From Candidatus Gottesmanbacteria bacterium (lineage in GTDB: Bacteria; Patescibacteriota; Microgenomatia; UBA10105; UBA927), in the NCBI GenBank assembly GCA_963809665.1, contig CAWEKC010000003.1:105473-169472 (forward strand): DNA of 64,000 nucleotides. Reading direction: 5' to 3'. Below the pieces are notes generated by a model. It made no database searches and had not been told where the DNA came from. It was given only the letters and a program-made list of their open reading frames with translations. Below, one piece after another: positions 24 to 8,362 of the stretch; position 1 is the first letter of the stretch; every line of letters starts with the position of its first letter. Position numbers and translations under genes: made by a program.

Positions 24-647
24 TTGATTTGGGATTTTGACGGGACATTCTACAAACCCAACCCGGAGTTGTTCCGCGATGTCCGGGAATCCGAATATCG
101 CGCGATCATGGATCTAACCGGGTGGACGCGCGGGAAGACAATAGAGGAGTTTCATAAACTTCATAAAGTGACAATTCAAAGCGCAACTGCGGTTGTTTCA
201 AAATTATGCAATATTTCTATTGCGGCCGCAGCGACTGAATCGGAAAAATATTTTGATAGGAGGAAATATCTTCACCGGGACCCGCGGCTTATAGAGATGT
301 TTGAAAAACTTAAGCACTTCCGGCATTTTATTTTTGCAAACGGGGTGATAGCTCATCATAAGGAAACGCTCGATGTTTTGGGGATACCTGCCGGTACGTT
401 TGAAGAGTTCGTGAGTTCGGAAACAGTCGGTGTCACCAAACCGGATCCCGCGGGATTTTTGTATATTATGAAAAAGACCGGATTGGTGCCCAAAGCACAT
501 CTCATGATCGGGGACAGGGAATTAGTCGATCTGGTACCGGCTAAAGCTCTGGGTATGCACACGTGTTTGGTGTGGAGCGATACACAAAGTACAGTTGCTG
601 ATGTCACACTCCCAAGTGTGTACGATGTAGTACAACTGCTGGTATGA
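24..647 (+). CDS. HAD-superfamily hydrolase
   Basis: N-terminal DxDGT motif (WDFDGTF), HAD motif III-like GDRELVDL near the C-terminus; TTG start; upstream stop at 18-20 bounds the ORF. Confidence 0.55.
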   Translation: MIWDFDGTFYKPNPELFRDVRESEYRAIMDLTGWTRGKTIEEFHKLHKVTIQSATAVVSKLCNISIAAAATESEKYFDRRKYLHRDPRLIEMFEKLKHFRHFIFANGVIAHHKETLDVLGIPAGTFEEFVSSETVGVTKPDPAGFLYIMKKTGLVPKAHLMIGDRELVDLVPAKALGMHTCLVWSDTQSTVADVTLPSVYDVVQLLV

Positions 648-1225
648 AACGCGGGAAACTTATTGTGTTTGAGGGTGTCAGCGGGACGGGAAAAGAGACG
701 CAGGCGAAATTATTGCAGAAATTTTTAACGAAAAAAGGAATTATTTCCCACATTGTTTTTCATCCGTCACCGGAATTGAAAGAAATTCTTTCCAAATGGA
801 GAAAAGACAGGGCAATTGACGAAGTAACGGAAACATATTTACTTCTGGCAGACCGTTCAAGTCGCGTGAGGCAGGATATACTACCGGCGCTAGAAAAAGG
901 GGAGTGGGTGATAAGTTTACGAAATTACGTGAGTGGTTTAGTATATCAGGGAAAAACAGAAGCAAGGCGACGCTGGATTGCGAAAGAGTTTTCGCGTTTT
1001 GAACCGAAACCAGATTTTTTATTTCATTTTGATATTACGCCGAAAGACGCAATGAAACGCATACTCAAGCGCGGTGAACCGCTCGGAAAATTTGAAACGC
1101 CGAATTTACTTAACGAAAAACGAAATAATTATCGAAAAGTATTAAAAAATATTCCACATATTACTATTGACGTCAGTTCGTCTATTAACGAGATTCATCG
1201 CAACATGCTAAAATATATTTTATGA
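644..1225 (+). CDS. Thymidylate kinase-like paralog (divergent; lacks canonical DR[YHF] motif)
   Basis: P-loop FEGVSGTGKETQ; overall Tmk architecture; the position of DR(Y/H/F) reads LRN, lid region YQG retained; overlaps next gene by 4 bp. Confidence 0.55.
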   Translation: MKRGKLIVFEGVSGTGKETQAKLLQKFLTKKGIISHIVFHPSPELKEILSKWRKDRAIDEVTETYLLLADRSSRVRQDILPALEKGEWVISLRNYVSGLVYQGKTEARRRWIAKEFSRFEPKPDFLFHFDITPKDAMKRILKRGEPLGKFETPNLLNEKRNNYRKVLKNIPHITIDVSSSINEIHRNMLKYIL

Positions 1226-1866
1226 AACGCGGATTTTTTATTGTTTTTGAGGGTGGTGAAGGAGCAGGGAAATCGGTCCAGGCTAAAATACTGGGTGACA
1301 GGCTACGGGATGCGGGAAAGATCGTTGTTCTTACGCGCGAGCCCGGCGGAACCCCTATTGGTGAAAAAATCCGTTCTATAACACATGATCCTGAAAACAG
1401 AGACTTAGATCCGGTCGCCGAGGCATATCTTATGGCGGCGTCACGGGCTCAGCATGTACGCGAGGTTATATTGCCGGCGCTCGCGCAGGGGAAAATTGTC
1501 ATTTCAGATCGGTTTGCGGATAGCAGTATTGCTTATCAGGGATATGGAAGGAATTTGGGGCCTAAAGAAATGATGGATCTCAACGAGTTGGCAGTCAACG
1601 GCGCAAAATCAGACCTTGTTATTCTTCTTGATGTACCTCCGGCAGTGGGACGTGTGAGATTTGAAAAAGAACGTAAACAAAAAGATCGTCTTGATATGCA
1701 GCAAAAAGATTTTTACGACCGGGTTCATGCAGGATATTTAACTCTTGCAAAAAATAATTCTTCGCAGTATGTTGTTGTCGACGCGACGCAATCCGTCGAA
1801 GACGTAGCATCTTATATTTGGAAAATTGTTGCAGATTTATTGAGAAAACGAAATGGCAAAGAGTAA
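1222..1866 (+). CDS. tmk: Thymidylate kinase
   Basis: P-loop FEGGEGAGKS, canonical DRF...AYQGYGR motifs, typical length 214 aa. Confidence 0.8.
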   Translation: MKRGFFIVFEGGEGAGKSVQAKILGDRLRDAGKIVVLTREPGGTPIGEKIRSITHDPENRDLDPVAEAYLMAASRAQHVREVILPALAQGKIVISDRFADSSIAYQGYGRNLGPKEMMDLNELAVNGAKSDLVILLDVPPAVGRVRFEKERKQKDRLDMQQKDFYDRVHAGYLTLAKNNSSQYVVVDATQSVEDVASYIWKIVADLLRKRNGKE

Positions 1867-2440
1867 AACTCGAAAAACAGGTAAACTGACGGTTATAGCC
1901 GGACCAATGTTCGCCGGTAAAACAACCAAACTTCTTACACTTTTCAGTGTTTTGTCAAATTTGGGTTACAGCACACTGTGTTTTAAAGCGGAAGCGGTAA
2001 GCAATGGGGGTATGGGACATACCACATCGCATGACGAGCGGCAACTGCCGGTTATTTATATCGACATGAACAAACCCGAAAAGGTTTTGGAATACGTGGA
2101 CGGGCAGGGGATCCGGAAAGTGATTATTGACGCCGTGCATTTTTTCCCGAAACAGGAATTCATAAGTGTCGTTAAAGAATTACTTGCATTAGGAATAGAT
2201 GTGTATGTCAACGGGCTTATTTATGATTATCGTAAACAGGAATACGGCGCCACAAAAACGCTCATGGGCATGGCGGACGAATGCATAGAGCAGTTCAGTA
2301 TATGCGTCAAATGCGGTGCAAAAGCCGCTCACACCGAACGTATTGCCGGAAGTACGAAATTGTCGGAAGGTACGACCGGTAAGATAGCAGCCAAATATAT
2401 AGCCGTCTGTTCCTCCTGCCACAAAATTTACCGGGGATGA
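1853..2440 (+). CDS. tdk: Thymidine kinase
   Basis: P-loop GPMFAGKTT; C-terminal zinc ribbon CVKCG...CSSCH typical of type II TK. Confidence 0.8.
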   Translation: MAKSKTRKTGKLTVIAGPMFAGKTTKLLTLFSVLSNLGYSTLCFKAEAVSNGGMGHTTSHDERQLPVIYIDMNKPEKVLEYVDGQGIRKVIIDAVHFFPKQEFISVVKELLALGIDVYVNGLIYDYRKQEYGATKTLMGMADECIEQFSICVKCGAKAAHTERIAGSTKLSEGTTGKIAAKYIAVCSSCHKIYRG

Positions 2441-3246
2441 ACATCAATACCCAACGCGATGTTATTTTGGTTATCGGTCCTTCGGCCAGCGGAAAAACAC
2501 ACGTGTTGAATCTTCTGCGTAAGGAAATCGCCGGAACATACGGATTACCGCACGAAATAGTTCCGCTTTCCGATTCCCATACCATTCTTGACAGAGTACG
2601 CGAGGATGACCGCCTGGGTGGTCGTCACCATTATCACTCATGGTCCCGCGGTATGGATTCGCACAATCATGCAGATCATCCGGAGATCATACCGTTTACT
2701 CTCGCAGGTGACCGTATAGGACATGCATTTATCCGTGATTTTTTTCAGGGTCTCGCGCAGTTACCCCACACAGGCGTCATCCGGTATGCCGAATGGTCAG
2801 GAGGGAAAAACACGAATCCCCGCGAGGATCGTGCTTCCCTGACAGACCTGTCGTTTCAAACGATTACCCGGCTTATCCGACAGGGCAGGATTTCGGCTGA
2901 AGGATTGGACAGGGTTGTCGCAGCGATTCACGTAGATACTGCCCGCGAATATCGTATGCACCTAAACGAGGATCGTTCGATGCCGACCGCCGATGAAATT
3001 AAATTTGGGTACGCATCATGGCCTTTGGATCAAGCCGGCATGAATATTTTTGGTGAAGATGATTTTTTGAATGACACACCATCATTATTGAATGAGCATA
3101 ATATCCCGTTCATCCGGACACTCCACAATAATCTTGACGGCAGTCTGGATCGTGAACTCCGGCGTGTGTTACCTGAGATAGTTTCTTTGTGGGGAGGCGG
3201 CGAAAATGGACGGCCCGGTTCCGTACAGGAGAGGGACCGGCGATGA
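2437..3246 (+). CDS. P-loop NTPase/kinase-like protein of unknown specificity
   Basis: Walker A VIGPSASGKTHV at N-terminus; His-rich segment GRHHYHSWSRGMDSHNHADH; no recognisable family beyond P-loop; overlaps downstream phosphatase gene by 4 bp (ATGA). Confidence 0.4.
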   Translation: MNINTQRDVILVIGPSASGKTHVLNLLRKEIAGTYGLPHEIVPLSDSHTILDRVREDDRLGGRHHYHSWSRGMDSHNHADHPEIIPFTLAGDRIGHAFIRDFFQGLAQLPHTGVIRYAEWSGGKNTNPREDRASLTDLSFQTITRLIRQGRISAEGLDRVVAAIHVDTAREYRMHLNEDRSMPTADEIKFGYASWPLDQAGMNIFGEDDFLNDTPSLLNEHNIPFIRTLHNNLDGSLDRELRRVLPEIVSLWGGGENGRPGSVQERDRR

Positions 3247-3800
3247 GAACGATCGTCTATCTTATCCGCCACGGGGCGTATGAGAATCCTCAGGAGATTA
3301 TGCCGTATCGAATGCCGGGATTCCATTTGTCAGAAACAGGCAAGTCTGATATAGGAAAACTGGCAGTTACACTGCGCCAACATACTATTGAGGCGGTGTA
3401 TGCCAGCCCGCTGACCCGGACACAGGAAACCGCGCAGATTTTAGCAAAACAATACAATCTTCCGGTCCTGACGGATAACCGGTTAATGGAGGTCAGGTCT
3501 CCGGTGCAGGGGAAGCCCGAAGGTTTTACTGAGTCGATGGGAGGGTGGAAGATATATGAGTCTGACTGGTATAAACAAGGGAAGGGTGAAACACCGGCAG
3601 AAATTTTTTCACGGATGGATTCATTTATGAAAGAAATAATACGGGAACATAGCGGAAAAGAAATTATTGTCGTATCGCATGGGGATCCGATCATGATATA
3701 TATTGCAGGGCACGAAGGTAAGCCGCTAACTGCGCAGAGTTTGTCCACTACCCCGTATATTCAGATGGGGCAGTGTGTTCCCATTTCATTTCCCGCTTGA
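3243..3800 (+). CDS. Histidine phosphatase (phosphoglycerate mutase family)
   Basis: RHG catalytic motif (LIRHGAYEN) at N-terminus, C-terminal SHGD motif; start moved to internal ATG at 3243 that overlaps upstream stop. Confidence 0.65.
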   Translation: MRTIVYLIRHGAYENPQEIMPYRMPGFHLSETGKSDIGKLAVTLRQHTIEAVYASPLTRTQETAQILAKQYNLPVLTDNRLMEVRSPVQGKPEGFTESMGGWKIYESDWYKQGKGETPAEIFSRMDSFMKEIIREHSGKEIIVVSHGDPIMIYIAGHEGKPLTAQSLSTTPYIQMGQCVPISFPA

Positions 3801-3878
3801 CAGAGTTATCCCGTATGGTACACTGGCAAAAAGCGCAGGAAAAAGAAAGCTTTTTTCAGCGCCTTTTTTGTTTTTTAG

Positions 3879-5000
3879 ATGAAAAAGCAAAAAACCGTCT
3901 CCGATGTAGTTCTTCAGAAAATTGTCCCTCACGAGGCCCTCACATTTGACGATATATTGCTCCTTCCGGGATATGCGGATTTCAAGCGTCAGGACGTGGA
4001 TTTGTCTACACAACTCTGTCCCGGTATCCGACTGAAACTTCCGGTTATTTCTTCTCCCATGGATACGGTAACCGAAGAGGCAATGGCCGTGGCACTGGCA
4101 CGCGCCGGAGCGTTGGGCGTGCTACACCGGAATTTATCGGTTGCAAGTCAGGCCCGGATGGTGGCGAAAATAAAACGGTTATGCTTACCGGTTGCGGCCG
4201 CCGTCGGGGTCGGGGAGGATTTTGACGTGCGGGTATCGGCGCTGGTGGCCGCGGGTGTTGATTTGGTTGTGGTGGATTCCGGACACGGGCATACAAAATT
4301 TATTATCGATGCGGTGAAAACAATTAAAAAAACGTATCACCGGCTACCGGTGATGGCGGGGAATATTGCGACATTTGACGGGGCAAAAGCTCTTATCTCG
4401 GCGGGGACTGATATACTGCGCGTCGGCATGGGTCCGGGCAGTATCTGCACAACCCGCATCGTCACAGGTATGGGGGTGCCGCAAATCAGCGCCATTTCTG
4501 CGGTGAAACGCGCCACGGAAGGCACTTCTGTTTCCGTCGTTGCCGACGGCGGCATCCGGCAGATGGGGGATATGGCAAAGGCATTCGCGTTCGGAGCGGA
4601 CGCCGTCATGCTGGGGTCGCTATTGGCACGGCTTACCGAGGCGCCGGGGCGTATTGTCCGGTTGAAGGGAAAACGGTACAAAGAATACCGCGGGATGGGA
4701 TCAATAGCTGCGATGAAAAAAGGCGGAGCTGAACGGTACGGCCAGTCGAGACTCGCTGATACAAAGCAACTCATAGCCGAGGGGGTTGAAGGACTGGTCC
4801 CGCTTAACGGGTCGGCCGCTACGTATCTGACCCAGATTGCGGGGAGTCTAAGGTCATCATTCTATTATATCGGGGCAAGGAATATCCTCGAATTTTTCCG
4901 GAAATCCCGCTGCATCAAGATTTCAAATGCCGGACTTTTGGAAAGTCATCCGCACAGTATCGACATTGTTGATACCGGGACGAATTATTCCCTGAAGTAA
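3879..5000 (+). CDS. guaB: IMP dehydrogenase, CBS-less form
   Basis: Catalytic loop GMGPGSICTTR, flap YRGMGSIAAMKKGGAERYGQ, C-terminal ESHPHSI; no CBS pair inserted (373 aa). Confidence 0.7.
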   Translation: MKKQKTVSDVVLQKIVPHEALTFDDILLLPGYADFKRQDVDLSTQLCPGIRLKLPVISSPMDTVTEEAMAVALARAGALGVLHRNLSVASQARMVAKIKRLCLPVAAAVGVGEDFDVRVSALVAAGVDLVVVDSGHGHTKFIIDAVKTIKKTYHRLPVMAGNIATFDGAKALISAGTDILRVGMGPGSICTTRIVTGMGVPQISAISAVKRATEGTSVSVVADGGIRQMGDMAKAFAFGADAVMLGSLLARLTEAPGRIVRLKGKRYKEYRGMGSIAAMKKGGAERYGQSRLADTKQLIAEGVEGLVPLNGSAATYLTQIAGSLRSSFYYIGARNILEFFRKSRCIKISNAGLLESHPHSIDIVDTGTNYSLK

Positions 5001-5020
5001 AAAAATGGTATGATAATGCC

Positions 5021-6344
5021 ATGATTCTTTCTGCGTCTGATCCTCAAATTGCCCAGTTGATAACCTCCGAGGCCAAACGCCAGGAAGAGGGTTTGGAGAT
5101 GATCCCGTCGGAGAATTATGTATCCGCCGGAATTCGCGAAACGTTGGGTTCGATCCTGACGAACAAATATTCGGAAGGGTATCCGCACAAACGGTATTAT
5201 GGCGGGAATGAGTTTATTGATGAAATAGAGCTTTTAGCCCAAAACCGGGCTAAAAAATTGTTCAATGTTCCGTATGTCAATGTCCAGCCGTATTCAGGAT
5301 CACCGGCGAACCTTGCAGTGTATCTGGCAACCTGTAAGCCCGGGGATACGATCATGGGTTTAAATCTTCTGGACGGCGGTCACCTGACGCACGGGTGGAA
5401 GGTGTCGGCAACGGCAATGTTTTACCGAAGTGTACCGTATCACGTGACCGCGGATGGACATGTGGATATTGATGAAGTGTGGCGGCTGGCCCGTGAGCAT
5501 AAACCTAAATTGATTTGGACCGGTGCCACGGCGTATGTATACCAGTATGAATTTGAAAAATTTGCGGAAATTGCCAATTCAGTAGGTGCGTATCTGGCAT
5601 CGGACGTGGCACATGTTATCGGACTTATCATTGCGGGCGTCCACAAGAGTCCGTTTCCCTGGGCGCACATTGTAACCACGACAACACATAAGACACTTCG
5701 GGGGCCGCGCGGGGGAATGATTATGGTAACAGGTGTAGGCCTCAAAAAAGATCCGGAGTTGGGGGATAAAATGGACCGTGCCGTATTTCCGGGTCTTCAG
5801 GGCGGGCCGCATGATCAACAGACCGGAGCGATAGCGGTTGCTTTGAAAGAAGCGGGGATGCCAGCATTTAAAAAATACGGCCAACAGGTTGTTAAAAATG
5901 CAAAAGTTTTGGCCGAAACGCTCAAGGCCAATGGAATGAAATTAGTCGGGGACGGGACGGAAAACCATTTAATTTTAATAGACCTCGTTCCTACGTTCGG
6001 TGCCGGCGGGGGAATATTTGCACAGGAAGCACTTTCGACTGCCGGTATTACCGTGAACAAAAATACGATTCCGAAAGACCCGGGCAGCCCGTTCTATCCG
6101 TCAGGCATTCGTATCGGGACCCCTGCCATAACAACACGGGGCATGGGGACCGGGTGAAATGAAGATCATTGGCAAGTGGATCGCCACAGCGATCAGCCAA
6201 GTCGCGGATTGCCGATTGCCGTCAACGAAAGAAGAACGGATTGAATATCTTAAGGATTTCCGTCAGTCGGTCGGGAAAAATAAAACACTGGCCGGAATTC
6301 GGAATGATATTAAAACCATGGTCGTCCGCTTCCCTTTACCGTAA
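5021..6344 (+). CDS. glyA: Serine hydroxymethyltransferase, interrupted by apparent +1 indel in a GGGG run near 6145-6148
   Basis: IPSENYVS...KYSEGYP N-terminal SHMT motifs, PLP-Lys region TTTTHKTLRGPRGG; C-terminal ~60 aa (EMKIIGKWIA...) continue in frame 0 after stop at 6157; removing one G restores RGMGPGEMKII. Confidence 0.75.
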
Positions 6345-6466: not shown

Positions 6467-7342
6467 ATGGAAGAAATAACATTACAAGCGCTTCTTGAAG
6501 CCGGTTGTCATTTCGGACACAAAGCCGAACGGTGGCATCCGAAAGCCGCAGGATTCATTTACACGAAAAAAGACGGCATACATATCATAGATTTAGCTAA
6601 AACCAAAATCGGACTGGAAGCGGCTGCGGCATTTGTGAAAGACCTTGCCGGGAGCGGCAAAGAGGTCGTTTTTGTGGGTACCAAACGCCAGGCGTCGGGC
6701 GTCGTCAAACAGGAAGCGGCTGCTGCAGGTGCTCCGTACTTCGTCGAACGCTGGATCGGCGGATTTTTGACTAACTGGGACCAGATTAAAAAGAATATTG
6801 ATAAAATTCTCAAAATGGAAGCAGACAGGGCGTCCGGAGCCTGGAAAAAGTTCCCCAAGCACGAACAGGTGAAAATGGGACGGTATCTGGACCGCATCAA
6901 GATTTATTACGGCGGAGTACTTTCCATCAAAGCGATTCCGCAGGCACTGGTGGTCGTTGACGTCAAGAAAGAAGAACCCGCTGTCCGGGAGGGAAAACGC
7001 GTCGGGGTTCCGGTGGTGGGTATTGTGGATACGAACTCCGATCCCACACCGATTGACTATGTGATTCCGGCAAACGACGATGCTGTCGGTTCCATTCAAT
7101 ACATTATTCACGTTCTCGCGGGCGCTTATGGTGAAGGAAAAGCAGCGTGGGAAAAGGCGAATAAGGAAGAGACGGCAAGAATCGAAGCGGAAAAAGCAAA
7201 AACCGTAAAAGCCGTCCCCGGGGTTAAAGCACCGTTGTGCCGGAGGTTAAAAACAGAAATCGAACCGACGCAAAAGCTAAAGAGGCAAGAATTAAAAAAA
7301 CCTCGCAAAACTGACGAAAGCAGGCGTAAAATAATAGTATGA
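6467..7342 (+). CDS. rpsB: 30S ribosomal protein S2
   Basis: LLEAGCHFGH...RWHPK N-terminus, conserved uS2 core, Lys/Glu-rich C-terminal tail. Confidence 0.9.
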   Translation: MEEITLQALLEAGCHFGHKAERWHPKAAGFIYTKKDGIHIIDLAKTKIGLEAAAAFVKDLAGSGKEVVFVGTKRQASGVVKQEAAAAGAPYFVERWIGGFLTNWDQIKKNIDKILKMEADRASGAWKKFPKHEQVKMGRYLDRIKIYYGGVLSIKAIPQALVVVDVKKEEPAVREGKRVGVPVVGIVDTNSDPTPIDYVIPANDDAVGSIQYIIHVLAGAYGEGKAAWEKANKEETARIEAEKAKTVKAVPGVKAPLCRRLKTEIEPTQKLKRQELKKPRKTDESRRKIIV

Positions 7343-7794
7343 AAATTTCACTTGAACTTCTTAAGAAACTCCGTGCAGCTACTGGTGCCGGTGTGTCGGA
7401 TTGCAGGCAGGCGCTTGAGGATGCCGGAGGCGACTACGCAAAAGCAAAAAAACTCATTATGGAGCGGGGACTGGAAAAAGCCGCGAAAAAGGCAGGACGC
7501 CAAACCCAACAGGGATTAATTGAATCCTACGTACACGCCGGACGCGTCGGGGTACTTGTCGAACTTCGCTGTGAAACGGATTTTGTGGCGCGTACAGGTG
7601 ATTTTAAAAACTTAGCTCACGAACTTGCCCTTCAGATTGCATCCATGAATCCGAAAAACGTAAAGGAATTGCTCGTCAGCCCGTACATCCGTGATGAAGG
7701 GATTACGATTGAAGCGCTCGTCAAACAAACGGTCGCTAAAGTCGGCGAAAACATCACGGTTGCGCGCTTTACACGGATTGCGTTGGGTACATAA
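7339..7794 (+). CDS. tsf: Elongation factor Ts (short form)
   Basis: N-terminal UBA-like LLKKLRAATGAGVSDCRQALEDAGGDYAKA; 151 aa short EF-Ts; overlaps rpsB stop. Confidence 0.85.
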   Translation: MKISLELLKKLRAATGAGVSDCRQALEDAGGDYAKAKKLIMERGLEKAAKKAGRQTQQGLIESYVHAGRVGVLVELRCETDFVARTGDFKNLAHELALQIASMNPKNVKELLVSPYIRDEGITIEALVKQTVAKVGENITVARFTRIALGT

Positions 7795-7813
7795 TCGTGA
7801 TACTATTTTTTCG

Positions 7814-8362
7814 ATGATAGAATCCATTCTCAACACCGCACGGGAGAAGATGAAGAAAGCCCTCGATGTTACGCGCACGGATCTCACCTCCATTCGTTCA
7901 GGCCGTGCCACCCCAGCACTTGTTGAAAATATTTTCATTCTTGCCTATGGCGGAAGCCAGCGTCTTCGCGTGCAGGAAATGGCGACGATAGCCACGATGG
8001 ATTCTAAAACGCTGGTTCTTACCCCGTATGATCCGTCAACGATTGCGGAAATCGAGAAGGGGATTATGGCAGGCAGTTCGGGTCTTACACCCGTCGTTGA
8101 TCGGGAAATCATCCGTATTACGATTCCGATGCTGTCCGAAGAGAGACGTCTCGAATATATCAAACTCGCCAAAGCAAAATTGGAAGGCGGCCGCGTAATG
8201 GTGCGCCAAATCCGCGGAGAGGCCATGAAAGAGCTCAAAAAATTACTCTCTGAAGATGAACAAAAACACGGGGAACGCCTTGTGCAGGAGCTTACCGATG
8301 AAATGGTTGCGGAAATAGACAATCTCGGGACTAAAAAAGAAGCGGAACTCCTTCAGGTATAA
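7814..8362 (+). CDS. frr: Ribosome recycling factor
   Basis: MIESILNTAREKMKKALDVTRTDLTSIRSGRATPALVENI is a typical RRF N-terminus; 182 aa; start set at internal ATG 7814 rather than ORF-track 7691 that overlaps tsf. Confidence 0.85.
   Translation: MIESILNTAREKMKKALDVTRTDLTSIRSGRATPALVENIFILAYGGSQRLRVQEMATIATMDSKTLVLTPYDPSTIAEIEKGIMAGSSGLTPVVDREIIRITIPMLSEERRLEYIKLAKAKLEGGRVMVRQIRGEAMKELKKLLSEDEQKHGERLVQELTDEMVAEIDNLGTKKEAELLQV

Follow-up and report, generated by a model that had tools for sequence, protein, structure and literature searches.

A run of forward-strand genes from a HAD-family hydrolase to a serine hydroxymethyltransferase (SHMT) lies in the window (the whole 64,000-nucleotide stretch that was analysed), and a 269-residue P-loop protein within it, here called X, is our main subject. 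An earlier note had described a Walker A protein of that length with a His-rich segment in a nucleotide-kinase neighbourhood. We recover both, the protein as forward-strand open reading frame 2437–3246 with G14-PSASGK-T21 and its His stretch, and the neighbourhood as Tmk', Tmk and a TK1 homologue (Tdk*) upstream with IMPDH downstream. The features are as follows.

24..647, + strand, HAD-IA hydrolase, the first operon gene visible (Pfam HAD_2, E 1.4e-11)
644..1225, + strand, Tmk', a divergent thymidylate-kinase paralogue (PF02223, E 4.6e-29; TIGR00041, 114 bits against a cutoff of 83)
1222..1866, + strand, Tmk, the canonical thymidylate kinase (PF02223, E 2.1e-51; TIGR00041, 191 bits)
1853..2440, + strand, Tdk*, a TK1-family protein (PF00265, E 2.3e-25)
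2437..3246, + strand, X, a 269-residue P-loop protein of predicted NMP/nucleoside-kinase fold
2476..2499, + strand, Walker A of X, G14-P-S-A-S-G-K20-T21, read from sequence
2626..2679, + strand, X-family-specific His loop, H64-H65-Y-H67-S-W … H76-N-H78 … H81
2953..2976, + strand, lid segment of X, R173-MHLN177-ED-R180, after strand 4
3243..3800, + strand, histidine phosphatase, His_Phos_1 branch 1, 185 residues (PF00300, E 1.2e-31)
3797..3824, + strand, sigma-70-like match, TTGACA-16-TACACT, TG-extended, between the phosphatase stop and IMPDH
3879..5000, + strand, IMPDH/GMP-reductase-type protein without a CBS subdomain (PF00478, E 6e-130, contiguous over residues 20–359)
5021..6157, + strand, SHMT (PF00464, E 6.7e-149)

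The HAD protein, which also lies upstream in 13 related loci, scores best with NCBIfam models of pyrimidine 5'-nucleotidase and YjjG type (TIGR01993, E 2.4e-14; TIGR02254, E 7e-13), all under their cutoffs. The translations show that Tmk' reads L-R-N where Tmk has D-R-F. At the other end of the run, the IMPDH-type protein matches TIGR01302 in two stretches (405 bits against a cutoff of 481); its gene occupies this slot only in the window and is missing there from all related loci. SHMT, the one-carbon donor for thymidylate synthesis, commonly follows the cluster on its 3' side (L003, L011, L013–L017, L019 and L024). The sigma-70-like match is the best in the region, although it rests on consensus and such sites are no more numerous than chance; it may mark the 3' boundary of a HAD-to-phosphatase transcription unit.

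Sequence and predicted fold of X

X is a real gene. It has homologues of equal length (25 close and 107 distant), and its dN/dS against the closest loci is ~0.10–0.13, similar to the values for HAD and Tmk from those genome pairs. We considered a fast-evolving conflict gene and largely rejected it, as X equals HAD and Tmk in both dN and dN/dS over the closest loci. The AF2 model is confident (pLDDT 90.2, pTM 0.88) and, together with structure searches, gives a parallel five-stranded core that resembles solved kinases, with a lid after strand 4 (modelled at residues 160–168). By predicted structure, X thus belongs to the P-loop NMP/nucleoside-kinase fold class. Its Walker A, residues 14–21 (GPSASGKT), conforms to GxxxxGK[ST] followed by helix 1, and A-E-W-S-G-G follows strand 3. 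Across 66 diverse members only H65 and H67 are fully invariant; G19, K20, D46, D57, H76, H78, E119, G123, S139, R173, D209 and N231 are kept in at least 90%, and all members of the close family share R173, N177 and R180.

Profile searches place X in no known family; the earlier note could likewise assign none from the sequence. Pfam returns only generic AAA/P-loop models, all under their gathering scores (E ≤ 1); PF02223, PF01712 and PF00265 give no match, AAA_33 (PF13671) reaches E 0.1 over 19 residues of the P-loop only, and Zeta_toxin (PF06414) is not matched. The kinase-fold likeness was borne out by structure, whereas membership of the 6PF2K, Zeta_toxin, AAA_33 or dNK families was not. 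Longer or fused members of the X family carry no informative extra Pfam domain. Profile–profile alignment (hhalign) with three solved archaeal adenylate kinases covers 39 N-terminal columns only (88% probability), and with the Tmk', Tmk, Tdk* and dNK alignments of the operon 27–36 columns only (dNK 27). Because these matches are confined to the P-loop region, no residue-level mechanism can be transferred, and we rejected X as a recent copy of an operon neighbour. A PDB sequence match to FtbK (9j1k, E 0.08) was likewise rejected as chance, since FtbK is a component of a phage-tail-like bacteriocin.

PADLOC assigned X to 0 families and no defence or phage family matched; no copy was found in IMG/VR, which therefore offers no evidence for a viral X. 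No relative emerged from motif scans of GTDB species representatives, and a search of a 5.8-billion-sequence database added P0099 among the matches listed. The literature on CPR/Patescibacteria nucleotide kinases yielded nothing on the X family, which is small and unnamed and so far is seen only in Microgenomates-type (Gottesmanbacteria-like) CPR bacteria.

The structure matches also bear on a PNKP-like end-healing role, in which X would be a polynucleotide 5'-kinase and the phosphatase or HAD protein would serve as a 3'-phosphatase module. We regard this as extremely improbable: dozens of other kinases match X at least as well, neither a ligase nor a nuclease is found in the neighbourhood, and the context is uniformly one of mononucleotide metabolism.

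The His-rich stretch (R63-HHYHSWSRGMDSHNHADH-81) is modelled with pLDDT 87–92 despite having no regular secondary structure. It often carries a Cys after the Trp, giving the pattern HxHxW(C)…HxH, and one distant relative (P0119) lacks it. Asp and His abound on the acceptor side around it, where, outside the lid, the 66 members have no conserved Arg or Lys like the phosphate-holding residues of NMP kinases. The loop is probably a metal (Zn) knuckle standing in the place of the NMP-binding subdomain, the metal role being one that we infer.

The invariance of H65 and H67 could also be read as that of a phospho-histidine, ping-pong enzyme of NDK type, in which the two residues relay the gamma-phosphate to an NDP such as dTDP and complete a series Tdk, Tmk, X. 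Three kinase genes in a row fit such a series, as does the lack of ndk from the window and related loci, which cover little of a genome: when Ndk, Adk, Gmk, Cmk, PyrH and Udk of E. coli and B. subtilis served as tblastn queries, none was found there, a result that covers 64 kb of a ~1-Mb genome and says nothing genome-wide. We nevertheless think this enzyme type very unlikely for X, given the loop-less P0119 and the resemblance of the two-by-two HxH, often with its Cys, to a metal knuckle. Close relatives without X also keep an otherwise identical operon, so X is no indispensable step there. Nor do we know of a P-loop enzyme of NMP-kinase fold that uses a phospho-histidine intermediate.

Neighbours of X: a TK1 homologue and a histidine phosphatase

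A TK1 homologue lies directly upstream of X in 19/19 lineages, including those of X relatives at only 20–28% identity. In the window the two genes share an ATGA overlap (2437–2440), which the earlier note missed. The slot is shared by distinct X subtypes: in L018 the TK is 84% identical and X 22%. Other neighbours of X loci include dCTP deaminase, ThyX, dNK and SHMT.

Tdk* is itself atypical. It keeps the P-loop, the Walker-B Asp and the Zn-ribbon lasso, and alignment to solved TK1s shows IDAVHFF for IDEVQFF, so that the catalytic Glu is missing. It has FKAEAVSNGG and no KPxxDxRY motif and, scoring 109 bits where 183 are required, reaches none of the NCBIfam TK cutoffs. All 17 X-linked copies in a 17-locus alignment lack both Glu and the DxR motif, and 119 of the 120 closest homologues lack Glu. 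This common loss, with an adjacency that is absolute and translationally coupled (19/19), would suit a role for X as partner or regulator of Tdk*, acting on it as an ATPase or protein kinase by binding, activation or modification. Glu-less Tdk* is, however, widespread without X and hence does not depend on it, and X has the fold and lid of a small-molecule kinase; we consider a regulatory role distinctly unlikely.

On the other side of X, the earlier note's ATGA coupling and its RHG-type histidine phosphatase both hold: the TGA of X (3244–3246) overlaps an ATG (3243–3245), and the product scores 110 bits with PF00300 (cutoff 21.7). The phosphatase carries R9-H10-G11, R59, an acidic residue in RL(M/L)(E/D) and H146-G-D; six orthologues share R9, H10, R59, the E/D of RL(M/L)(E/D)V and H146, and from these residues we predict it to be catalytically complete. 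It reaches no NCBIfam equivalog cutoff.

The earlier note saw in this pair the architecture of 6-phosphofructo-2-kinase/fructose-2,6-bisphosphatase, or else a couple acting on a nucleotide or sugar phosphate. The first did not survive: X has no match to PF01591 (6PF2K) at E ≤ 1 and its structure is not specifically closest to 6PF2K. A dedicated couple that tunes an intermediate as 6PF2K/FBPase-2 does would explain the ATGA overlap, the adjacency in six lineages, which include P0022 and P0025, the most divergent members of the close family, and the P0022 contig, where the TK–X–phosphatase trio stands alone in an otherwise unrelated neighbourhood. Four-base overlaps are frequent in operons, however, and alone are no proof of a functional pair. 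The phosphatase directly follows X in only 6 of ~14 lineages, X occurs without it in at least eight, and in L024–L026 it sits directly after the TK1 homologue with no X present. Against the closest relative, L016, it is 43% identical where X is 77%. Co-occurrence across genomes was thus upheld for TK1 and X and not for X and the phosphatase. The phosphatase is an independent, facultative operon member and no dedicated partner or antagonist of X, and we find such a couple improbable. The reading of the locus in the earlier note is, as a whole, partly supported.

A proposed accessory kinase in nucleotide salvage

We propose that X is an ATP-dependent kinase with an accessory part in pyrimidine or deoxynucleotide salvage, a P-loop phosphotransferase whose His loop shapes the acceptor pocket; taken jointly, we give these statements an even chance. 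The proposal draws on the constant TK1 neighbour, the patchy phosphatase, its occurrence without X and the unequal divergence of the two. ATP-Mg would sit on the P-loop (K20/T21) with Glu119 as the Walker-B residue, Arg173 of the lid (with Arg180 in the close family) would close over the phosphates, and Asp46, at the end of strand 2, would act as general base or Mg ligand. The gamma-phosphate would then pass to a small acceptor lying under the His loop, HxHxW(C)…HxH; this loop would shape the pocket and probably holds a metal, Zn for example. The acceptor is most likely a pyrimidine (deoxy)nucleoside or nucleotide, as the coupling to a TK1 homologue and an operon of dCTP deaminase, ThyX, dNK, HAD, the Tmk pair, uridine phosphorylase and SHMT suggest; with no such conserved Arg or Lys on the acceptor side outside the lid, a nucleotide is not favoured over a hydroxyl acceptor. 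A bolder version, which we rate as unlikely, makes X a new mechanistic class of nucleotide kinase, with a His4 metal or phospho-histidine centre in place of the arginine-lined NMP site and filling a step otherwise missing from such reduced genomes, for instance UMP/dUMP or dTDP phosphorylation; pyrH is absent from its usual tsf–frr gap in the window and in all related loci. In this version X might also act jointly with a TK1 whose catalytic base is gone.

That Asp/His-rich, Arg-free acceptor side is also what hydroxyl and sugar kinases have. X could accordingly be a sugar-phosphate kinase of nucleoside catabolism, acting on (deoxy)ribose or its 1-phosphate, for example to the 1,5-bisphosphate. 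This substrate would be released by uridine or thymidine phosphorylase, the phosphatase/mutase-family protein would act on pentose phosphates, and the product would feed a RuBisCO route; Gottesmanbacteria carry an AMP/RuBisCO nucleotide-consuming pathway (PMC6389311). A uridine phosphorylase follows TK–X–phosphatase in L017, and gluconate kinase (4eun) is among the structural matches of X. This phosphorylase is adjacent in one locus only, however, none of the loci has a RuBisCO-pathway gene close to X, and a match to PhnN is limited to the P-loop (E 0.13), so that we rate a sugar substrate as quite unlikely and keep to pyrimidine salvage.

CPR bacteria are without de novo nucleotide synthesis and rely on salvage, by enzymes that are mostly inferred from homology. 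The Microgenomates salvage operon has at least two parts that homology cannot explain, the X family and the phylum-wide Glu-less TK1. A substrate for X would fill a gap in CPR metabolic reconstructions, and X may reveal a new acceptor-site design on the NMP-kinase scaffold; should it be an ordinary accessory nucleoside kinase, the gain would be modest and limited to naming a family and correcting an annotation.

Comparison with known systems

X is 11% identical to archaeal-type adenylate kinase (AdkA; PDB 6ln3, 1nks, 1kht) and ~70 residues longer than it and other NMP kinases. Where NMP kinases have NMP-binding helices, X has the HxH…HxH loop and none of their acceptor-phosphate Arg residues; the D-T-H Walker-B motif and the NMP-site and lid Arg of archaeal adenylate kinase are not found in it. 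To dNK/dCK, chloramphenicol phosphotransferase, gluconate, shikimate and APS kinases and AAA_33 it has no family-level sequence match, and we know of no His loop in any of these families. The likeness to 6-phosphofructo-2-kinase/fructose-2,6-bisphosphatase lies in a P-loop module beside a His_Phos_1 module; unlike there, X and the phosphatase are neither fused nor obligatorily paired. A precedent for a two-by-two metal knuckle that stabilises a mobile, substrate-covering element is found in the zinc-lid adenylate kinases and the TK1 lasso, and the Foldseek matches of X include the Zn/Co/Fe adenylate kinases 3l0s and 3l0p. Those sites are built of Cys (or Cys/His/Asp) in lid or lasso, whereas the putative site of X would lie in the acceptor region and be made of four His, many members having Cys as well.

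X in its gene series

The 269-amino-acid Walker-A protein X is encoded within a tight same-strand gene series:

24-647, +, HAD hydrolase
644-1225, +, Tmk-like protein (Tmk', a divergent thymidylate-kinase paralogue)
1222-1866, +, Tmk
1853-2440, +, TK-family protein (TK1 homologue; TK below)
2437-3246, +, X, 269 aa
3243-3800, +, His_Phos_1 phosphatase (PF00300, 110 bits)
3879-5000, +, IMPDH-type protein
5021-6157, +, SHMT
after SHMT, in that order: rpsB, tsf, frr, M50 protease

X carries a Walker A motif (GPSASGKT, residues 14-21) and a His-rich stretch (RHHYHSWSRGMDSHNHADH, residues 63-81). Its junction with the phosphatase gene is a four-base ATGA overlap (X TGA 3244-3246, phosphatase ATG 3243-3245), and the TK/X junction overlaps likewise (TK stop 2438-2440, X ATG 2437-2439). 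The phosphatase has the complete branch-1 residue set: RHG, second Arg, acidic donor and second His. The earlier note had described a Walker-A protein with a His-rich segment, overlapping an RHG histidine phosphatase inside a nucleotide-kinase cluster with IMPDH downstream; coordinates, motifs, overlap and phosphatase residues all match, and that description is therefore correct.

Tmk' reads L-R-N where Tmk reads D-R-F, yet scores above the TIGR00041 cutoff; it is conserved across all related loci, has weak PADLOC matches (PDC-M51B, 1.5e-7; VakA, 2e-5) and may act on a substrate other than dTMP. The IMPDH-type protein (373 aa), a candidate IMPDH or GMP reductase, is without a CBS subdomain; Pfam gives one contiguous catalytic domain, and TIGR01302 two stretches, below cutoff. 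Further along (7339-8362, +), EF-Ts is unusually short (151 aa), frr begins about 20 bases past tsf, and pyrH (UMP kinase) is absent from its usual rpsB-tsf-pyrH-frr slot in the window and in the related loci reaching frr (L001, L003, L009, L014 and L015).

An orphan family with a His loop

That no family could be assigned to the P-loop protein is borne out by our searches: X passes threshold in neither Pfam nor NCBIfam (P-loop matches only, all sub-threshold), PADLOC gives no match, PHROGs one weak chance match only, and the PDB, searched by sequence and by profile, nothing past the P-loop. A weak match to FtbK, a bacteriocin tail protein, was dismissed as chance. Twenty-five relatives came from a word-indexed search across 5.8 billion clusters, 245-272 aa long except for two shorter, apparently truncated ones; we found no Pfam domain in them, and one carries the label "Microgenomates group bacterium". 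Searched exhaustively with an HMM, 1.84 billion representatives yielded no more than 107 proteins at E<=1e-3; the set ends sharply and nothing bridges it to other kinase families. Motif scans found no copies in GTDB species representatives or IMG/VR. A few of the 107 hold the domain twice in tandem and reach about 500 aa (P0026, P0027 and P0028, 506-520 aa); the second copy in P0027 has a degenerate P-loop (GQDNGGQS).

X is functional, since its dN/dS (about 0.13 against L016, the closest relative of the window, and about 0.10 against L005) equals that of HAD and Tmk; TK is lower (about 0.04-0.06), and over larger distances the divergence of X is somewhat quicker. In locus L018, TK is 84% identical to the window's and X only 22%, directly preceded by a degenerate X-like paralogue (1466-2230) in which the His loop is missing; as there, distinct X subtypes can fill the slot. 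This pair and the tandem copies hint at possible action of X as a dimer. These analyses establish that X is a real protein under selection, that it has a P-loop and an NMP/nucleoside-kinase fold and no Pfam family, and that it occurs only in a CPR lineage.

Across 66 family members, some only about 20% identical, two residues never vary (H65 and H67, 66/66), and G19, K20, D46, D57, H76, H78, F87, E119, G123, S139, R173, D209 and N231 recur in at least 90%. On the structural model, K20/T21 map to the P-loop, D46 to the end of strand 2, E119 to the end of strand 3 (the Walker-B position) and N231 to the end of strand 5; the predicted lid after strand 4 holds R173, joined in the close family by N177 and R180. 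A 30-residue loop (60-91), modelled with almost no secondary structure (pLDDT 87-92), carries the motif HxHxW(C)x5-8(G)HxH and takes the place of the NMP-binding subdomain. The two-by-two ligand pattern suggests a metal knuckle. That these histidines mark a phospho-histidine, NDK-like kinase is very unlikely; the distant relative P0119 has no His loop and keeps K, D46, E119, R173 and D209.

The TK homologue and the phosphatase

Among 26 recovered loci, a TK-family gene lies immediately upstream of X in all 19 lineages with a visible upstream side, usually overlapping by four bases, and this adjacency extends to relatives at only 20-28% identity (P0062, P0099, P0116 and P0118). The conserved order is dcd, (ThyX), dNK (a deoxynucleoside kinase), HAD, Tmk', Tmk, TK, X, variable genes, SHMT, rpsB-tsf-frr; X is invariably coupled to the TK homologue inside a pyrimidine/deoxynucleotide salvage operon. 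In distant relatives (L019, 867-2078; L022, 3883-5160) Tmk sometimes carries a fused HD phosphohydrolase domain, and the L022 operon has a ThyX of about 530 aa, roughly twice the usual size.

Aligned to solved TK1s (2orw, 2b8t and 1xx6), the window TK reads IDAVHFF for IDEVQFF, whose Glu is the TK1 catalytic base, and FKAEAVSNGGMGHTTSHDER at the position of FKPxIDxRY; it retains the P-loop, the Walker-B Asp, Arg/Tyr of the lasso and the CxxC…CxxCH zinc ribbon. Both changes recur in 17/17 X-linked copies and in 119 of the 120 nearest homologues in the database (at the Glu site: DA 83, DN 33, DS 2, DT 1). Many of the latter are labelled Candidatus Gottesmanbacteria, and the window's organism probably belongs there too. 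The window TK falls under every NCBIfam TK cutoff. As judged from sequence, the gene annotated as thymidine kinase (1853-2440; also in L001-L026) is not a canonical TK1. Constant adjacency raises a role for X as partner or regulator of this homologue, which we consider improbable; the Glu-less variant does not depend on X, because it also occurs without it.

The phosphatase directly follows X in six lineages (the window, P0002, P0006, P0015, P0022 and P0025); on the P0022 contig, TK-X-phosphatase stands alone in an otherwise unrelated neighbourhood. Elsewhere the next gene encodes a GGDEF protein (P0013, P0014 and L007), SHMT (L011, L013 and L019), an unknown protein (L014) or Tmk' (L021). The GGDEF-domain protein in the phosphatase's place (L001, 6834-7655; L009, 7380-8204; L007, 3373-4335) is odd company for a nucleotide-salvage operon. 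Uridine phosphorylase (TIGR01718, 279.9 bits) is the next gene after TK-X-phosphatase in L017; that X phosphorylates pentoses or pentose phosphates in nucleoside catabolism is as improbable as a role as TK partner.

An X-less operon, dNK-HAD-Tmk'-Tmk-TK-phosphatase-SHMT, occurs on at least 17 contigs with the TK of GW2011_GWB1_43_11 (Gottesmanbacteria; 75% identical to the window TK). There the phosphatase begins five bases past TK, and the X-family HMM finds no X. This phosphatase is orthologous to the window's, with the same family-specific motifs (38% identity by alignment; 42% over the tblastn-aligned part). Between the window and L016, identity is 79% for HAD, 76% for Tmk', 79% for Tmk, 89% for TK and 77% for X, then 43% for the phosphatase and 62% for SHMT. 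The window SHMT is closest to the L011 and L013 copies (76%), and rpsB, compared with the nearest relative whose locus extends that far (L003), is again 81% identical. Only the window, among loci compared, has IMPDH in the post-phosphatase slot; given this and the low phosphatase and SHMT identities, the operon is mosaic and 3243-6157 (+) has a history different from that of X, which suggests a segment swapped in by recombination. The ATGA junction unites two genes without shared evolution. Each gene occurs without the other, and X has no obligatory link to the phosphatase; the proposed PFK2/FBPase2-like pair does not hold, and a true kinase/phosphatase couple, the overlap notwithstanding, is unlikely.

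Proposed function and known systems

We infer, at roughly even confidence, that X is an ATP kinase. A pyrimidine (deoxy)nucleoside or nucleotide would sit as the small acceptor beneath the metal-stabilised His loop and receive the gamma-phosphate; D46 would serve as base or Mg ligand, and R173 would act from the lid. A polynucleotide acceptor, making X a polynucleotide kinase, is highly improbable. An orphan kinase and a phylum-wide TK1 without its catalytic base together mark a gap in the nucleotide salvage of CPR bacteria that is concrete and can be tested. X differs from classical NMP kinases in that its acceptor side is without conserved Arg/Lys. It is no new kind of system, its fold and general chemistry being well known; its family is unnamed and has an unusual invariant motif in the acceptor site.
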